From IMG/VR virus record IMGVR_UViG_2585427765_000006: DNA of 6,088 bases; one strand, given 5' to 3'. The DNA comes from a virus. Its lineage: Duplodnaviria > Heunggongvirae > Uroviricota > Caudoviricetes. Positions 1-6,088 of the stretch are shown here, piece by piece (within the stretch, counting starts at the first letter, position 1; each line of letters starts with the position of its first letter). The position numbers and the translations under genes are program-made. The notes beneath the pieces are model-generated. The model was not told the origin of the DNA, made no database searches, and saw only the letters and a list, made by a program, of their open reading frames with translations.

Positions 1-465
1 GATTACTGGAACAACTGGCTCAGGGACGTGTTGATGGCAGCTGGCTGAAATATCTGAAACAGTTGCAAAAAATACAGGTTCTAATCCTGGACGATCTGGG
101 GCTGGAACAGTTAAGTAACGCCCAGTGTAATGACCTTCTGGAGCTCATAGAGGATCGTTACGGACAAAGCAGCACGATAGTGGTAAGTCAGTTCCCGGTA
201 GATAAATGGCATGGTCTGATGGAGAACCCAACAACAGCAGATGCCATCCTGGACAGACTGGTACATAACTCACACCGGGTGGTCCTTCAGGGAGAGTCAC
301 TGAGGAAAAATCCCCCGGTAGTGGAAAGCAGCGAAAAAACGCGTTAAAAAGCGGTAGAAAAAGTTAAGTTCCCGGTTGATCGAATGGATGCGAATCGCTG
401 ATCGGACTTCGATGCCAATCCGTGATCGAATAGAGCGGAATACGCACTTACCCGAAAACCACTCA
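1..465 (+). mobile_element. Right-hand end of an IS21-family insertion sequence (partial; the element continues upstream of the window)
   Basis: Contains the 3' end of an istB-like gene, followed by a non-coding stretch (348-465) with repeated GATCGAAT / GCGAATCG / CGGAATACG motifs (about 378-444), consistent with the multiple terminal repeats of IS21-family ends. Exact right terminus not determinable; the downstream capsid frame opens at 434 (TAG at 431-433), so the junction lies roughly within 434-470. Confidence 0.7.
3..347 (+). CDS. istB: IstB-like transposition helper ATPase, C-terminal portion (5' truncated by window edge)
   Basis: The frame is open from position 3 to TAA at 345-347. 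Translation shows a Walker-B-like VLILDDLG followed by TIVVSQFP...W...ADAILDRLVHNSHRVVLQGESLR, the characteristic C-terminal signature of IS21-family IstB proteins. Confidence 0.85.
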   Translation, partial: LLEQLAQGRVDGSWLKYLKQLQKIQVLILDDLGLEQLSNAQCNDLLELIEDRYGQSSTIVVSQFPVDKWHGLMENPTTADAILDRLVHNSHRVVLQGESLRKNPPVVESSEKTR

Positions 466-1063
466 GGAAATTATCGATTTTTCCGAAGTCGATATTATGG
501 GCTGGTTATCTTCTGAAATTGGCGACACTTTCGTTGATACCGAAGAAACGGATCTGGTTTCCGGTGATGGCGAGAAAAAAGCCAAAGGTTTCCTGACTTT
601 CCCGCGCACTACGGATAATGACAAAACCCGTCCTTTCGGTACGCTCCAGACGAAAAAAGTGACTGGCAGTCTCAGCGCCGATATGCTGATTGACCTGAAA
701 TTTACGCTGCGCAATAAGTACCGCAAAAAAGCTGTATGGGTGATGAACTCAAATACAGCCGCCTCCGCACAAAAACTGAAAAATGCCACTGGTGATTACA
801 TCTGGCGCGATCGTTTACAGGCTGGTGATCCTGATTCTCTGCTGGGGCTTCCGGTTGAATATCTGGAATTTATGCCGGACGGTGTGATTGCAGTCGGTGA
901 CTTTAAGCGCGGTTATTTCATCGTTGACCATAAAACCGGTACGCGTACCCGTCCGGATTTCAGCGAGCCTGGATTCATTAACATCTATACCCAGAAATAT
1001 CTGGGCGGTGGTGTGGTGGATTCGAACGCCATCAAGATTCTGGAAATTCAGGCTGGCAAGTAA
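466..1063 (+). pseudogene. HK97-fold phage major capsid protein, C-terminal fragment; N-terminal part separated by the IS insertion
   Basis: Translation (…EIIDFSEVDIMGWLSSEIGDTFVDTEETDLVSGDGEKKAKGFLTFP … LLGLPVEYLEFMPDGVIAVGDFKRGYFIVDHKTG … NAIKILEIQAGK) matches the conserved middle and C-terminal blocks of HK97-family capsid proteins (GDG..K.KGFL block; LWGLPVV-like block; GDF..G block). No plausible N-terminus or RBS; the frame runs directly into IS terminal sequence. Start coordinate approximate (±30 bp). Stop TAA at 1061-1063. Confidence 0.75.
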
Positions 1064-1068
1064 TGAGC

Positions 1069-1092
1069 AAAGGGGGCTTCGGCCTCCTTTTT
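1069..1092 (+). terminator. Rho-independent terminator candidate immediately after the capsid gene
   Basis: AAAGGGGGC (1069-1077) / UUCG loop (1078-1081) / GCCUCCUUU (1082-1090) forms a 7-9 bp GC-rich stem (one G·U pair) with a UUCG tetraloop, followed by a T-run (1088-1092). Lies 6 nt after the capsid stop codon. Confidence 0.6.
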
Positions 1093-1112
1093 CAGCTTTA
1101 TGGAGTACACCG

Positions 1113-1673
1113 ATGAAAAACACCGATTTTGAAATCCGTACATCTGAACTGACCGCCAGCGATAAAAAACTGGTGGGTTATGCCGTTCGCTGGAACAGCC
1201 TTTCAGAAATTATCTGGGACGAGTTTCGCGAACAGTTCACGCCGGGGGCTTTTGCTGACTATCTGGCGGCAGGTAATGATGTGCGCTGTCTGTATGAGCA
1301 TGACTATACCCAACTGCTGGGGCGTACCAAATCCGGCTCACTGGTACTGACTGAGGATAACACCGGGCTACGTTTTGAACTGACACCGCCAAATACCCAG
1401 CTTGGAAAAGATGTGCTTACGCTGGTGGAACGTGGCGACATTACAGGGATGAGCTTTGGCTTTCGCGCATTATGCGAGGAGTGGAATATCGCGCAAAAAC
1501 CGTATCTGCGTACTGTAACCGCCGCAGAACTCCGTGAAATCACGATAACATCGATGCCTGCTTATCCCGAATCCGGCGTGGAGATTGCCCACCGTTCGTT
1601 GTTTGCACAGTACCCTGAATTACGCCCGGCAGGAAATAATCGTCATCGCTGGGCTGAACTGGCGGGGTTGTGA
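1113..1673 (+). CDS. HK97-family prohead (head maturation) protease
   Basis: ATG at 1113 preceded by GGAG (1102-1105). Translation (…LVGYAVRWNSLSEI…FTPGAF…VRCLYEHDYTQLLGRTKSGSLVLTEDNTGLRFELTPP…DITGMSFGFRAL…) shows the typical prohead protease layout. The ORF-track 888..1673 entry is an upstream extension of the same frame overlapping the capsid gene. Confidence 0.88.
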   Translation: MKNTDFEIRTSELTASDKKLVGYAVRWNSLSEIIWDEFREQFTPGAFADYLAAGNDVRCLYEHDYTQLLGRTKSGSLVLTEDNTGLRFELTPPNTQLGKDVLTLVERGDITGMSFGFRALCEEWNIAQKPYLRTVTAAELREITITSMPAYPESGVEIAHRSLFAQYPELRPAGNNRHRWAELAGL

Positions 1674-1674
1674 T

Positions 1675-2889
1675 ATGTGGTGGCCTTTTAGTCGTAAAAA
1701 AAGCGATCTGCGTAACCTGTCCATTGATGATTTTCTGGCGTTGTCTGGTGTACCAAATACCGGATCCGGAGAATATGTTTCTGCCGGGACGGCTGAATCA
1801 TTGCCTGCTGTGATGAACGCGGTTTCTGTCATCGCTGAGGCGGTGGCCACGATGCCGTGTTACCTGTATCTGGTACGCAATGATAAGGGCAGAGAGGCGC
1901 GGGAATGGCAGGACAGTCACCCGGTAGATATTCTGCTGAATGAGCAGCCTAATTCGTGCCTGACACCTTACCAGTTTAAACGCACAATGATGCGTCACTG
2001 CCTGCTGAACGGTAACGCCTATGCGGTTATTGAGTGGGGGCGGGACGGGCAGCCAAAATCACTTCATCCTTATGCGCCGGGGTGTGTTGTACCGGAACGC
2101 ACAGGCACACACAAATACCGCTATACCATCACCGAACCCTGTACAGGAACGGTGCGCACGTATTTACAGGAAGAAGTTCTGCATCTCCGCTATGCCTCGG
2201 ATGATGGCTTTCTGGGGCGTTCCCCCGTCACGATTTGCCGTGAGGCGCTGGGGCTTGGCCTTGCTCAACAGCGTCACGGAGCCAGCATTATGAAAGATGG
2301 CATGATGGCGGCAGGGATTATCACGTCAGGTGAATGGCTGGACGGCGTGAAAGGTAAACAGGCATTAGACGCACTGGAACGCTACAAGGGGGCGAAAAAT
2401 GCCGGAAAAACGCCAATCCTTGAAGGGGGCATGGATTACAGGCAGCTGGGGATGAGTAACCAGGATGCGGAATGGCTGGCCTCCCGTCGCTTCTCCATTG
2501 AAGACATCGCCAGGATGTTCAACGTGTCGCCGATTTTTCTTCAGGAATACAGCAACAGCACCTACAGCAATTTCAGTGAGGCGAGCCGCGCATTTCTGAC
2601 CATGACAATGCGCCCGTGGCTGGCGAACTTCGAACAGCAAATCAAGGCCGCTTTGCTGGTGACTTCTCCCGTACCTGGTACCCGTTATCTGGTTGAGTTT
2701 GATTCAGCCGATTTACTGCGCGCCACACCCACCGAACGTTATGCCACGTATGAGAAAGGGATTAAGAGCGGGATCATGAATCCGAACGAAGCTCGCGAAC
2801 GCGAGGGTATGCCGCCGCGTGAAGGTGGTGATGAGTTCAGCCAGGCATGGAAACAGACTGTGGAAATTAAAGGGAGAAAAGATGAGTGA
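1675..2889 (+). CDS. Phage portal protein (HK97 family)
   Basis: ATG at 1675 is 1 nt after the protease stop (TGA 1671-1673), suggesting translational coupling. The 404-aa translation contains portal-type blocks (…NGNAYAVIEW…GRSPVTICREALGLGLA…NAGKTPILEGGMDYRQLGMSNQDAEWLASRRFSIEDIARMFNVSPIFL…SNFSEASRAFLTMTMRPWL…). Confidence 0.88.
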   Translation: MWWPFSRKKSDLRNLSIDDFLALSGVPNTGSGEYVSAGTAESLPAVMNAVSVIAEAVATMPCYLYLVRNDKGREAREWQDSHPVDILLNEQPNSCLTPYQFKRTMMRHCLLNGNAYAVIEWGRDGQPKSLHPYAPGCVVPERTGTHKYRYTITEPCTGTVRTYLQEEVLHLRYASDDGFLGRSPVTICREALGLGLAQQRHGASIMKDGMMAAGIITSGEWLDGVKGKQALDALERYKGAKNAGKTPILEGGMDYRQLGMSNQDAEWLASRRFSIEDIARMFNVSPIFLQEYSNSTYSNFSEASRAFLTMTMRPWLANFEQQIKAALLVTSPVPGTRYLVEFDSADLLRATPTERYATYEKGIKSGIMNPNEAREREGMPPREGGDEFSQAWKQTVEIKGRKDE

Positions 2890-3184
2890 AGCCAGAATTA
2901 CACCTGATGAAGTCAGGGCACATCTTCGACTTGATGATGATTTATCCGGTGAAGGCGAACTTCTGAAAATGTATACCGATGCGGCGCTGGAAGCCTGCCA
3001 GAAGCATATCGGGAAACGTTTTGAAGACGGGCTGGAATTTACCCCGGCAATGCGTGTTGGTTGCCTGATGTACATCGCTTTCCTGTACGAGAACAGGGAA
3101 GCAGTTTCACCAGTGGAGCAGTCTGAACTGCCTATGGCTATTTCTGCGCTCTGGTCGGTTTATCGTGATGTGGGGGTGTACTGA
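2882..3184 (+). CDS. gp6-like head-tail connector (head completion) protein
   Basis: ATG at 2882 with AGGGAG (2871-2876) upstream; overlaps the portal stop by 8 nt. Translation starts MSEARITPDEVRAHLRLDDDLSGEGELL…, typical of gp6-like connector N-termini (…AHLR.DDD…). About 100 aa. Confidence 0.75.
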   Translation: MSEARITPDEVRAHLRLDDDLSGEGELLKMYTDAALEACQKHIGKRFEDGLEFTPAMRVGCLMYIAFLYENREAVSPVEQSELPMAISALWSVYRDVGVY

Positions 3185-3624
3185 TGCCGTGGCAACCATT
3201 AAGGCGATGCACTGAGCCGGGCTGTAATAAGCGCGTGAAGTCCGGCAAGTGTGAAGAGCACAGACGGGCTGTATGGCGTGCAGAGGATGCCAGACGGGGA
3301 CACCGCCGCGCGCGCGGGTATTCCCGACAGTGGGACAAATACCGCGCCCTGTACCTGAGCAAAAACCCGTTATGCGTGCGTTGTCTGGCTAAGGGGATTT
3401 ATACGCCAGCTCTTGTGGTGGATCACATCATCCCCATCAATGGCGGCGGTGATGTTCTCTTCTGGCCTGAGTGGAACCACCAGGCATTGTGCCAGACGTG
3501 CCACAACCGTAAGACGACACGGGAAGATCCAGCCACGAAAGCGAACCGTAAGGCGGGCATGTATCGCGAGCAGGAAGAACGGGCAGCACACCGTAACGAC
3601 TGGATGTATGGCGATGATGACTGA
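3184..3624 (+). CDS. HNH endonuclease (terminase-associated)
   Basis: ATG at 3184 overlaps the connector stop (cTGATG). Translation has an N-terminal Cys cluster (CTEPGCNKRVKSGKCEEH) and the HNH core (VVDHIIPINGGGDVLFWPEWNHQALCQTCHNRKT). It sits directly upstream of terS, as in cos-type HK97-like packaging modules. Confidence 0.88.
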   Translation: MPWQPLRRCTEPGCNKRVKSGKCEEHRRAVWRAEDARRGHRRARGYSRQWDKYRALYLSKNPLCVRCLAKGIYTPALVVDHIIPINGGGDVLFWPEWNHQALCQTCHNRKTTREDPATKANRKAGMYREQEERAAHRNDWMYGDDD

Positions 3625-3793
3625 ACAGGAGCAAACCAGGCTGATACGTGGACTGATAAGGCAGCGTGACTTATGGAAGACACAGGAGACAGGGCACAAA
3701 GCCAACAGGACAGGGCGCACAGAACGCACCACAGCGAAGCAATTAACCGACCGTGACCGCGAGGTCATGGAATGTTTTCGCAATCGCTGGTGA
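3608..3793 (+). CDS. Hypothetical small basic protein (about 58-61 aa), uncertain
   Basis: ORF MAMMTEQEQTRLIRGLIRQRDLWKTQETGHKANRTGRTERTTAKQLTDRDREVMECFRNRW fills most of the HNH-terS gap (alternative ATGs at 3608/3614/3617). No recognisable motif or clear RBS; it overlaps a DNA-level direct repeat, so it may be non-coding. Confidence 0.2.
   Translation: MAMMTEQEQTRLIRGLIRQRDLWKTQETGHKANRTGRTERTTAKQLTDRDREVMECFRNRW
3682..3723. repeat. Imperfect tandem direct repeat, ~21 bp unit, containing GACAGGGC twice
   Basis: acaggagacagggcacaaagc (3682-3702) followed by acaggacagggcgcacaga (3705-3723). GACAGGGC occurs at 3688-3695 and 3709-3716, 21 bp apart (two helical turns). Confidence 0.5.
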
Positions 3794-3867
3794 GGCCGTC
3801 AGAGGGGGTGGGGGTGGTTTTCAGGACGAAACCGTCCCTGCCGGACACCGACCGCCTCCTCAAATTT

Positions 3868-3896
3868 TTGTGCACGGGAATTTTTTTGAAAATAAT
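3868..3896 (+). promoter_or_regulatory. Candidate sigma70-like promoter upstream of terS
   Basis: TTGTGC (3868-3873), a 17-nt AT-rich spacer, then AATAAT (3891-3896), about 16 nt upstream of the terS ATG (3913). Only a partial match to consensus; no experimental support. Confidence 0.3.
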
Positions 3897-3912
3897 TGGG
3901 CGAAAAAAGAAC

Positions 3913-4269
3913 ATGGCAAGACCACCAAAAGCCCCCGCTTACCTGGATGAAATCGCGGTCAGGCAGTGGAAGGAAAAATCGCGCCAGCTTTCCGGACGGG
4001 AAGACCTTACTCCCGCCGACTGGAGCAATCTGGAGCTGTATTGCGTTAACTACTCCATATACCGCAAAGCCGTCGAAGACCTTGCCACGCGCGGGTTCAG
4101 CATTGTTAACAGTCAGGGCAGCGAGAGCAGAAACCCCGCCCTGAGCGCAAAGGCTGACGCTGAAAGAATAATGATCAAAATGGCTTCTTTGCTGGGTTTT
4201 GACCCGGTAAGTCGCCGCAGAAATCCACCGGAAACAGAGGAAGAGGACGAGCTTGACCGCCTGGCATGA
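3913..4269 (+). CDS. terS: Phage terminase small subunit (P27-like family)
   Basis: Translation MARPPKAPAYLDEIAVRQWKEKSRQLSGREDLTPADWSNLELYCVNYSIYRKAVEDLA… (118 aa) matches the N-terminal pattern and size of P27-family small terminases. The ORF-track start at 3772 is an upstream extension; ATG 3913 gives the typical size. Acidic C-terminus. Confidence 0.8.
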   Translation: MARPPKAPAYLDEIAVRQWKEKSRQLSGREDLTPADWSNLELYCVNYSIYRKAVEDLATRGFSIVNSQGSESRNPALSAKADAERIMIKMASLLGFDPVSRRRNPPETEEEDELDRLA

Positions 4270-5914
4270 GTACGCAGAAGGCGTAAAAAACAGCAAAATT
4301 ACGGCCTGTAAACGACTGAAACAGGCCGTTAAACGGTATTTTTCTGACCTTGAAAACCCCCTTTACACGTTCGATCCGGAGGTCGTGGAGCGGTTTATTG
4401 CCTTTTCCAGGGTGTGTCCGCACGTAAAAGGCGCAATGCGCGGTAGCCCCATTGAGCTGGAGCCGTGGCAGCAGTTCGCCTTTGCGTGCATCCTGGGCTT
4501 TAAGGTTAAGGCCACCGGACGGCGCAAATACACCAGCGCATTCATTGAAGTGCCGCGAAAAAATGCCAAATCCACGGTCGCCGCTATCCTGGCTAACTGG
4601 TTTCTGGTTATGGAAAACGGGCAGCAGGATATTTACACCGCCGCCGTGAGTCGTGATCAGGCGCGGATCGTGTTTGATGATGCGCGTCAGATGTGCCTTT
4701 TATCCCGACCGTTACGAAAGCGGGTAAATATTCAGGCACACAAGGTGATACACCCGAAAACCAACAGCCTGTTAAAGCCACTGGCAGCAAAAGCGGCAAC
4801 CATTGAAGGTACAAACCCGAGTCTTGCCATTGTGGATGAATATCACCTGCACCCTGACAACGGGGTTTATTCCGCGCTTGAACTGGGAATGGGGGCGCGT
4901 CCGGAGGGGCTGTTATTTGCCATCACCACATCGGGGAGCAACGTTGTTTCAGCCTGTAAACAACACTATGACTATTGCTGCCAGATACTGGATGGTGAAG
5001 AGGTGAACGAATCCATGTTCGTGCTGATTTACGAGCTGGATGATGAAAGCGAGGTTGACGATCCGGCGATGTGGATAAAGGCGAATCCCAATATCGATGT
5101 TTCCGTCGATCGTGAAAAACTGGCCTCAACCATCCAGAAAGCGCGGGGTATTCCGTCGCAGTGGGTGGAAATGCTCACCAAGCGATTCAATATCTGGTGT
5201 CAGGGGGCTACGCCGTGGATGGGTAACGGTGCATGGGCGGAGTGCGCCGGAACGTTCGCGGAGGCGGATTTATACGGTCAGGAGTGCTACGCGGGGCTGG
5301 ACTTATCATCAACCAGCGATATTTCCAGCGTGTGCTATGCCTTTCCGGTCGGTAAAAAGATTATGCTGGTTTCCCGTCACTATCTGCCGGAATTTCAGCT
5401 ACAGAACCCCGCCAATAAAAACCGCGCCATCTATCGCCAGTGGGTAAAGGCGGGCTGGATACGCACAACACCGGGTGACTGCATTGATTATGACCGTATC
5501 CGTGATGACATCATGGCGGATGCAGAGAATTTCAATATCAGGCTGGTGGGCTTCGATACATGGAACGCCACGCACCTGAGGACGCAGCTACAGGGGGCAG
5601 GATTTGAGGTGGAGCCGTTCCCGCAAACATACCTTCGTTTCAGTCCGGCGGCGAAATCGTTCGAAGTTTTTGTTAACCGGAAGGTGATTGTGCATCGTGG
5701 CGATCCGGTGCTGGCCTGGTCAATGAGTAATGTTGTGATGCAGAGTGACGCGAACGCCAATATCAAGCCGAACAAGAAAAAATCATCCAACAAGATAGAC
5801 CCGAGCGTTGCGGCGCTGATGGCGTTTGGCACATTCCAGGCAGAGCATGAGGAATTTGCATTTGATATGAGCGACAGCCACAAAGAGCGGCTTGCGGCGT
5901 TTGATGGGGTATGA
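4253..5914 (+). CDS. terL: Phage terminase large subunit (ATPase plus nuclease)
   Basis: 553-codon ORF. Putative TTG start at 4253 with GAGGA (4243-4247) 5 nt upstream, overlapping the terS end by 17 nt; the start codon is uncertain. Contains a Walker-A-like EVPRKNAKST, a Walker-B-like LAIVDEYH, and C-terminal nuclease-type acidic blocks (GLDLSSTSD, VGFDTWNA, KIDPSVAALMA). Confidence 0.92.
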   Translation: MTAWHEYAEGVKNSKITACKRLKQAVKRYFSDLENPLYTFDPEVVERFIAFSRVCPHVKGAMRGSPIELEPWQQFAFACILGFKVKATGRRKYTSAFIEVPRKNAKSTVAAILANWFLVMENGQQDIYTAAVSRDQARIVFDDARQMCLLSRPLRKRVNIQAHKVIHPKTNSLLKPLAAKAATIEGTNPSLAIVDEYHLHPDNGVYSALELGMGARPEGLLFAITTSGSNVVSACKQHYDYCCQILDGEEVNESMFVLIYELDDESEVDDPAMWIKANPNIDVSVDREKLASTIQKARGIPSQWVEMLTKRFNIWCQGATPWMGNGAWAECAGTFAEADLYGQECYAGLDLSSTSDISSVCYAFPVGKKIMLVSRHYLPEFQLQNPANKNRAIYRQWVKAGWIRTTPGDCIDYDRIRDDIMADAENFNIRLVGFDTWNATHLRTQLQGAGFEVEPFPQTYLRFSPAAKSFEVFVNRKVIVHRGDPVLAWSMSNVVMQSDANANIKPNKKKSSNKIDPSVAALMAFGTFQAEHEEFAFDMSDSHKERLAAFDGV

Positions 5915-6088
5915 CGAGAATGAGCGAAACCGAACTACTAAAAATAATCCGCCGCGTTACCGGAATCAGCCAGGAAGCAGGCAAACAGGAGGCCACGCAG
6001 CCGGACAGCGTGATAGCCAAAAATTACGCGCGTGTGGTGGCTGAGGTGATGCGCCGTGACGGTATCGAGCTTAACGGCGTGGATATAC
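5911..6088 (+). CDS. Hypothetical protein, 5' part only (runs off the window); possibly a head-tail adaptor/joining protein
   Basis: Open frame from ATG 5911 (overlapping the terL stop as ATGA) or ATG 5920, to the window end: M(TR)MSETELLKIIRRVTGISQEAGKQEATQPDSVIAKNYARVVAEVMRRDGIELNGVDI… No recognised motif; the functional guess rests only on position. Confidence 0.4.
   Translation, partial: MTRMSETELLKIIRRVTGISQEAGKQEATQPDSVIAKNYARVVAEVMRRDGIELNGVDI

Follow-up and report, generated by a model that had tools for sequence, protein, structure and literature searches.

Phage-inducible chromosomal islands of the kind that forms capsids (cf-PICIs) spread between species while packaging only their own DNA in their own capsids, and the cohesive-end (cos) site is the signal behind that exclusivity. 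Where such a signal lies is the question raised by a stretch of 6,088 nucleotides, IMG/VR virus record IMGVR_UViG_2585427765_000006 (hereafter the window), in which 288 nt separate the stop codon of an HNH endonuclease gene, at 3624, from the start codon of the small terminase gene, terS, at 3913. Judged by its sequence, the window covers the half of a cf-PICI from E. coli that serves packaging. The original prediction took this interval (3625–3912) for an unusually long gap holding the packaging site. We observed that ~170 bp of it belongs to a gene, and that 119 bp (3794–3912) is the sole truly non-coding part. We consider it likely that the packaging (cos) site lies in this non-coding part and, with the same confidence, that the interval between hnh and terS is made up of a small accessory gene (3617–3793) and a cos site of the HK97 type. 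That cos lies between hnh and terS is already an established rule in HK97-like systems, and the location itself would not surprise a specialist.

The first line of evidence is the conservation of the non-coding part. Relatives were collected through the TerS protein and not through DNA motifs, which gave 80 IMG/VR loci, Pasteurella phage Pmp8 and 80 loci from species-representative genomes; loci found by DNA pattern were left out of the conservation figures, because the blocks are conserved there by construction. One set comprised 11 lineages (<93% identity, including Pasteurella) and the other 42 lineages (<90% identity, ~35 genera) from the species-representative genomes. We observed that three blocks, A, B and C (Table 1), are conserved on a par with codon positions 1 and 2 of terS across the 42 lineages and ~35 genera. 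In the 11 lineages the mean pairwise identities of blocks A, B and C were 0.87, 0.84 and 0.97, respectively, against 0.60 for terS codon position 3. In the 42 lineages they were 0.67 for block A (0.75 for its G-tract core), 0.80 for block B (0.88 for its core, 3857–3869) and 0.93 for the T run of block C, the terS baselines being 0.79, 0.85 and 0.46 for codon positions 1, 2 and 3. The spacer between blocks A and B and the leader adjoining terS are variable (Table 1), and the leader (3897–3912) has indels that are not multiples of three.

The genera bearing the blocks include Klebsiella, Citrobacter, Serratia, Xenorhabdus, Proteus, Photorhabdus, Erwinia, Yersinia, Gilliamella, Frischella, Pasteurella, Testudinibacter and Aeromonas. 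The more distant relatives retain CTCAAATTTTT, GCRCGG and the T run, whereas GAAAATAA is eroded in them. The cos core (CTCAAATTTTT..GCACGG..T7 and the G tract) is nearly invariant over ~35 genera of Enterobacterales, Pasteurellaceae, the bee-gut Gilliamella and Frischella, and Aeromonas, and it is more conserved than TerS itself (68–85% amino-acid identity).

Table 1. Features of the window and of the hnh–terS interval (positions in the window; identities are mean pairwise values)
Feature	Position	Strand	Basis or remark
End of an IS21-family element	1–446		IstB C-terminus at 63–347; IstB E=6e-25
Part of a ~15-kb island	447–6088		99.75% identical to E. coli 700481 (record L001)
HNH endonuclease gene, terminase-associated type	3184–3624	+	Pfam HNH E=8.8e-10; PDB 5h0m E=3e-15; PHROG 144
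Small conserved open reading frame, 58 aa from conserved MTEQEQ start	3617–3793	+	Annotated coding sequence in identical record; PHROG 3173 E=9e-28
~21-bp imperfect repeat, GACAGGGC twice	3682–3723	+	In-frame 7-codon duplication (QETGHKA / NRTGRTE) inside the small reading frame
Block A: G tract and TTTTCAGGAC; consensus GGGGTGGGGGNGGTTTTCAGGAC	3805–3827		Conserved upstream cos element, at −54 to −32 relative to the predicted nick in the top strand
Variable spacer	3828–3842		Identity 0.51 (11 lineages), 0.45 (42 lineages)
Block B: C-rich segment and CTCAAATTTTT; consensus GGNACCNNCCNCCNCCTCAAATTTTT	3843–3869		Predicted nicking region, cf. cosN
Predicted 10-nt 3′ cohesive end CGACCGCCTC	3849–3858		Contig ends of one relative, transferred by alignment, and HK97 precedent
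Block C: GCACGGGAA-T7-GAAAATAA; consensus GCACGGNN-T7-GAAAATAA	3872–3896		GCACGG..T7 part at 3872–3887
Variable terS leader and ribosome-binding region	3897–3912		Identity 0.56 (11 lineages), 0.43 (42 lineages)
terS, small terminase, P27 family, 118 aa	3913–4269	+	Pfam Terminase_4 E=1.6e-23
terL, large terminase, HK97 type	4253–5914	+	Pfam TerL_ATPase and TerL_nuclease; PDB 6z6d

The original prediction had listed a repeat, a G tract, a hairpin and an AT-rich segment in the gap, and all of them are present at the positions given there. They fared differently when compared among relatives and with 2000 dinucleotide shuffles of the gap, which served as chance levels. The G tract (GGGGGTGGGGGTGG, 3804–3817) and the AT-rich stretch (3862–3912) turned out to be parts of the blocks conserved across genera; with 12 G in 14 nt, matched in only 0.4% of the shuffles, the G tract is also the sole listed feature beyond chance. 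The hairpin GGACG-AAAC-CGTCC (3824–3837) lost its standing as a feature: it lies mostly inside the variable spacer, its stem is broken in two close relatives (L035 and L042), and the number of hairpins is at chance level (at least four of 5 bp in 11% of the shuffles). The expectation that the gap would be conserved across related elements held for blocks A, B and C and failed for the hairpin and the repeats.

Conserved DNA directly upstream of a gene could also serve its expression, and the blocks might be a promoter, a terminator or a structured RNA leader of terS–terL with no packaging site at all. RNAalifold gave a weak pairing of the G tract with the C tract (−4.4 kcal/mol) that beats 100/100 column shuffles, and a weak terminator-like match was seen at 3796–3811. 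The pairing comes without covariation, since the paired G and C tracts are near-invariant; Rfam returned no match for the blocks, and no sigma-70-like promoter was found on the + strand of the gap. Moreover, the 16 nt adjoining the start codon are variable, whereas the blocks farther away are near-invariant, and expression signals leave unexplained the packaged-form assemblies, described below, that open exactly here. We regard this explanation as improbable.

It is also conceivable that 3794–3912 is coding and that TerS, at 165 aa, begins with the ATG at 3772 and has this part as an N-terminal extension. This frame is open in the window, and dozens of database entries call a 165-aa protein. 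In 68/77 relatives, however, an in-frame stop precedes the 118-aa start by no more than 125 nt, and we therefore take the 165-aa call (3772–4269, reading through cos) for an artefact of an accidentally open frame. A relative of the same lineage as the window (L034) carries a 1-nt indel, the NCBI Prokaryotic Genome Annotation Pipeline (PGAP) and RefSeq both use 118 aa, and the MARPPK start of the shorter protein is common to all families. A coding role is thus hardly credible, and we return to the cos site as the likely function of the non-coding part.

The second line of evidence comes from physical DNA ends, which were seen in relatives of the window's element. The contig IMGVR_UViG_3300022664_000095 (15,518 nt; L373 and L151) is of unit length and has the excised, cos-opened order terS–terL, int, capsid through HNH; it is colinear with the element vB_KppS-Ant and has no terminal repeat. 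It starts with CTCAAATTTTTACGCACGG... (at CTCAAATTTTT) and ends with ...CAAGGCAC (...GGCAC). Integrated relatives read GGCAC-CACCCGCCCC-CTCAAATTTTT, so that exactly 10 nt (CACCCGCCCC) are absent between the two ends of this one contig, in which the strand polarity is not directly visible. The end-repair step of library preparation degrades 3′ overhangs, whereas 5′ ones are filled in, and in assemblies cos ends come to stand at contig limits (PMC5557969). The absence of the 10 nt fits an end-repaired 10-nt 3′ overhang as in HK97, and a lambda-type 5′ overhang is argued against because the contig ends leave a 10-nt gap and not an overlap.

The second assembly is LR881103.1 (vB_KppS-Ant; L082), a 16.5-kb sequence assembled from a lysate on Klebsiella pneumoniae DSM 30104 and >99% identical to the host (PMC8006926). 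It ends with ...GGTTTTCAGGAC and starts 22 nt before terS, and it is without 69 nt that are present in the chromosomal copy of its own host (ATCC 13883, L253). The missing part is centred on CCCCCTC^AAATTTT, and block B lies inside it. For the cf-PICI of K. pneumoniae DSM 30104, He et al. (2025 preprint, 10.1101/2025.02.11.637232) reported that the packaged DNA has cohesive cos ends. Two packaged-order assemblies thus open between hnh and terS, where the original prediction had put the packaging site, and its placement at this level is supported.

Other records were considered and rejected. The apparent ends in L335, L100 and L204 are chunk boundaries and not contig ends. In the 106-kb PQ569648.1 (Klebsiella phage P12620-1; L333 1150–1260) similarity to the cf-PICI sets in exactly with codon 2 of terS, downstream of unrelated DNA, which is uninformative; the record is probably chimeric or recombinant. 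OR845787.1, grown on EDL933, was tried as a link between the window and the prototype cf-PICI EcCIEDL933 and provided none, as it has no match to O157 genomes.

These ends also bear on whether the element could package by a headful (pac) mechanism from within terS or elsewhere, in which case the gap would be irrelevant. The pac mode is used by many PICIs and by many Staphylococcus aureus pathogenicity islands (SaPIs) (10.1101/2022.09.08.507074). The unit-length contig, however, has unique ends and no terminal redundancy, the large terminase (TerL) is of the type of HK97, a phage with 3′ cos ends, with HNH adjacent, and cohesive ends are on record for a cf-PICI (10.1101/2025.02.11.637232). Headful packaging is in our view extremely unlikely, and the following comparisons start from a cos mechanism.

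By sequence, TerL is a homologue of HK97 gp2: its sole PDB match is HK97 TerL (6z6d, E=2.4e-43; residues 46–541, nearly full length). HK97, whose HNH protein is gp74, and the window share the order hnh, cos, terS, terL. HK97 has a 10-nt 3′ overhang (PMC9410871), its PhageTerm termini being 2047 (left) and 2036 (right), and the overhang predicted for the window is likewise of 10 nt and 3′. When the window is numbered with +1 at 3859, a C-rich segment stands at the cut in both; the T7 run starts at +23 in the window and at +24 in HK97, inside the mapped HK97 TerS site; and the G tract at −55 to −42 has a counterpart in a G9 run of HK97 at −51 to −43. The two also differ: HK97 is a 40-kb phage and the window's element a 15-kb satellite, and HK97 has ~320 bp from hnh to the cut without an annotated gene, where the window has its small gene. 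TerS of the window belongs to the P27/Terminase_4 family and showed no detectable relation to HK97 gp1 (BLASTP E=4; gp1 belongs to another PHROG and is without a Pfam match); a search of the window TerS against PDB sequences found nothing.

With somewhat better than even confidence, we place the nicks between 3848 and 3849 on the bottom strand and between 3858 and 3859 on the top strand. These positions were obtained by transferring the contig ends by alignment, the window having the same 21-nt spacer length. A first estimate of the cut from an HK97 motif alignment, CAAA/TTTTT (between 3864 and 3865), was replaced after the contig ends were found.

HK97 TerS binds at +15 to +29, CTAACCCGATTTTTT, where it contacts T16 and G21 and requires the A/T tract at 24–29 (PMC11331095); the numbering of that study fits the GenBank left end. 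In the window the same interval (3873–3887) reads CACGGGAATTTTTTT, a highly conserved sequence analogue of the mapped HK97 site. By this analogy TerS may bind here, a placement that we offer tentatively and hold to be somewhat less than probable. A T7 run is found 22–24 nt from the left end in HK97, SfV and the cf-PICI contig (L084, L249, L373 1–30), despite the different TerS family of HK97. T runs also occur in the first 40 nt of Gordonia phage Bialota and of Streptococcus phage Sfi21.

In the mechanism that we propose, induction would be followed by binding of the satellite's own TerS to the GCACGG..T7 element (~3873–3887), 15–29 bp right of the cut. TerL, aided by the adjacent HNH protein, would nick the C-rich block twice, 10 nt apart, at the two positions given above, and the product would be the 10-nt 3′ cohesive end. 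Packaging would then start at the terS side and traverse the element as far as the next cos, where site-bound TerS would halt the motor and the cut would be repeated. The upstream G tract (block A) would be part of the site and may act in termination. That the element works like HK97 is well supported for TerL, HNH and the geometry of the site; for recognition by TerS the likeness is one of analogy only.

Several points weigh against this account. The exact cut was placed from one metagenome contig whose library preparation is unspecified, and vB_KppS-Ant, with its 69 missing nucleotides, only brackets the site. A metagenome scan with the left-end pattern gave 38 matches that were all internal to contigs, and contig ends did not pile up. 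Between the gap and the cos region of HK97 no significant alignment was obtained, be it global (z=1.6; 163/2000 shuffles reach the score) or local, and we therefore claim only a shared architecture and geometry with HK97. With the SfV cos region the gap aligns just modestly (z=3.8; 7/1000 shuffles), SfV against HK97 giving z=5.3. The transfer of the HK97 TerS site is an analogy only, because the two TerS proteins are not detectably related in sequence. Mainly freely readable literature was searched, and it yielded no map of the cos site of a cf-PICI. Finally, the window's copy may not package itself: an IS21-family insertion sequence (IS) interrupts its gene for the major capsid protein, and homology with the intact island begins at 447. 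Its own capsids are probably not makeable, and the copy may be defective because of this IS.

The upstream part of the interval requires a different explanation. Its small reading frame is, by the sequence evidence, a real and fast-evolving accessory gene under moderate purifying selection. PGAP annotates a coding sequence there in the identical E. coli record (3608–3793, ATG at 3608, 61 aa), whereas the ATG at 3617, in overlap with the HNH stop, is the start that is conserved. We take the frame for a real gene because of its PHROG 3173 match, its 87 protein variants across the collected loci with the shared core M[TN]E...R[DE]RE[LV].EC[FM]RNR, its pN/pS (ratio of nonsynonymous to synonymous polymorphism) of 0.28–0.62, and its variability by codon position, which is highest at the third (0.42, against 0.30 and 0.27 at the others). 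The conserved C-terminus is R[DE]RE[LV].EC[FM]RNR. The gene is absent from Pasteurella Pmp8 and from L051 and L221, all three of which keep blocks A, B and C (Pmp8 TerS is 61% identical), and it is frameshifted or truncated in L009 and L078/L079. Most enterobacterial cf-PICIs carry this small Arg-rich frame between their hnh gene and cos.

It is within this gene that the 21-bp repeat lies, which the original prediction had read as a pair of phased TerS-binding sites defining a private packaging signal. Phased repeats do act as TerS sites in some phages, and the two GACAGGGC copies exist (3688–3695 and 3709–3716), spaced 21 nt, two helical turns apart. However, they are inside a protein-coding frame, and the protein alignment shows a 7-aa insertion solely in the window's E. 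coli lineage against all other families. As this insertion equals the second repeat copy, we interpret the repeat as an in-frame duplication of seven codons within the gene. Other cf-PICI families have unrelated DNA at the position, and the whole repeat region is missing from Pmp8, L051 and L221, where the blocks are kept. The mapped HK97 TerS site is right of the cut, while the GACAGGGC copies are ~140–170 nt left of it; measured against a lambda cosB-like array, they are neither conserved nor non-coding. The repeat is also within chance expectation, any 8-mer direct repeat occurring in 54% of the dinucleotide shuffles and one within 40 nt in 14.5%, and Tandem Repeats Finder reported no repeat in the gap. 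A role of these copies as TerS sites is very improbable, and the conserved blocks of the non-coding part stay the candidates for the site.

Among other known systems, Shigella phage SfV has a TerS homologous to that of the window (36% identity, E=7e-21). At its right genome end comes HNH, followed by a G tract (GGGGAGGGGCGGG), the record end, a C-rich segment and a T7 run at +22. In SfV, with ends as deposited, the C-rich segment is right of the end, whereas in the window it spans the predicted cut; the SfV alignment was not used for placing the cut, as it puts the C-rich blocks otherwise than the deposited SfV end does. The blocks of the window differ in sequence from both HK97 and SfV, which fits a site private to the satellite, as the original prediction had expected. 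Lambda cos (cosQ–cosN–cosB) has a similar three-part plan, with a nicking site between an upstream element and a site for TerS binding that faces the terminase genes; in contrast to the window, it has a 12-nt 5′ overhang and R-site repeats with an integration host factor (IHF) site, its terminase is unrelated and it lacks HNH. SaPIbov5 and other cos SaPIs (phages phi12 and phiSLT) are likewise satellites packaged from cos by an HNH-dependent terminase. Satellites of the SaPIbov5 type, however, use the helper's terminase and a copy of the helper's cos (PMC5052747), whereas the window's satellite encodes its own HNH, TerS and TerL.

EcCIEDL933 and KpCIDSM30104, both cf-PICIs described in preprints (Alqurainy et al. 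2022; He et al. 2025), are of the same island type and gene order. The accessible text of these two preprints states that cf-PICIs are packaged by cos and leaves the site unmapped (10.1101/2022.09.08.507074; 10.1101/2025.02.11.637232). Under the name vB_KppS-Ant, KpCIDSM30104 has itself been sequenced; it matches the window in its cos blocks, and its TerS is 85% identical. The window differs from both in belonging to another E. coli lineage, in the yifB insertion of its reference copy and in the IS in the capsid gene. vB_KppS-Ant was published as a filamentous single-stranded DNA prophage; what was sequenced from the particles is in fact the cf-PICI of K. pneumoniae DSM 30104 / ATCC 13883, and its 2.3-kb gene directly after terL is annotated as 'tail length tape measure protein'.

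The 119-bp candidate, with its predicted nicks and predicted TerS site, offers a concrete and testable target. A rather unlikely but far-reaching extension is that all these cf-PICIs share one interchangeable private packaging signal, with the small Arg-rich gene (PHROG 3173) as a possible extra, lineage-specific packaging factor. If true, any cf-PICI terminase could package other cf-PICIs, or a plasmid with this 120-bp cassette. The motif also marks cf-PICIs in genomes and viromes, and it tells intact copies from site-deleted ones. One of the latter is found in Shigella flexneri SFBU1023 (L310 1440–1520), where ~95 nt are deleted and the spacer that follows block A is fused, via CCCCGC microhomology, with terS at codon ~9. 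With blocks B and C and the terS start deleted, this copy is probably an immobilised remnant.

The assignment of the window to the cf-PICIs was judged on record L001, as the window spans the packaging half of the island only. The reference copy in E. coli 700481 sits in yifB. The first half of this island encodes an integrase, a helix-turn-helix regulator, an Icd-like protein, a primase, a single-stranded DNA-binding protein and a ProQ/FinO protein. The second half encodes the major capsid protein, prohead protease, portal, head–tail connector, HNH, the 61-aa hypothetical protein, TerS (P27 family) and TerL. No tail or lysis genes are present in the annotated ~15-kb island. Pfam searches of the window itself recovered the capsid, S78 protease, portal, connector, HNH, Terminase_4 TerS, and TerL ATPase and nuclease domains. 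In proteobacterial cf-PICIs the morphogenetic genes are followed by hnh–terS–terL (10.1101/2022.09.08.507074), and criteria for the class are also given in 10.1101/2025.02.11.637232. The annotated island has all of the defining features: a size within 10–18 kb; integrase, regulator and primase/replication genes; capsid–protease–portal–connector and then hnh–terS–terL; and the lack of tail and lysis genes.

Two further observations were made. Xenorhabdus genomes carry several cf-PICI-type terS loci each, at least six in X. innexi and three each in X. mauleonii, X. kozodoii and X. santafensis (L260–L332). In the window, a reading frame 3′ of terL (5920–6087) matches PHROG 1561 (E=3e-25) and runs past the window end.

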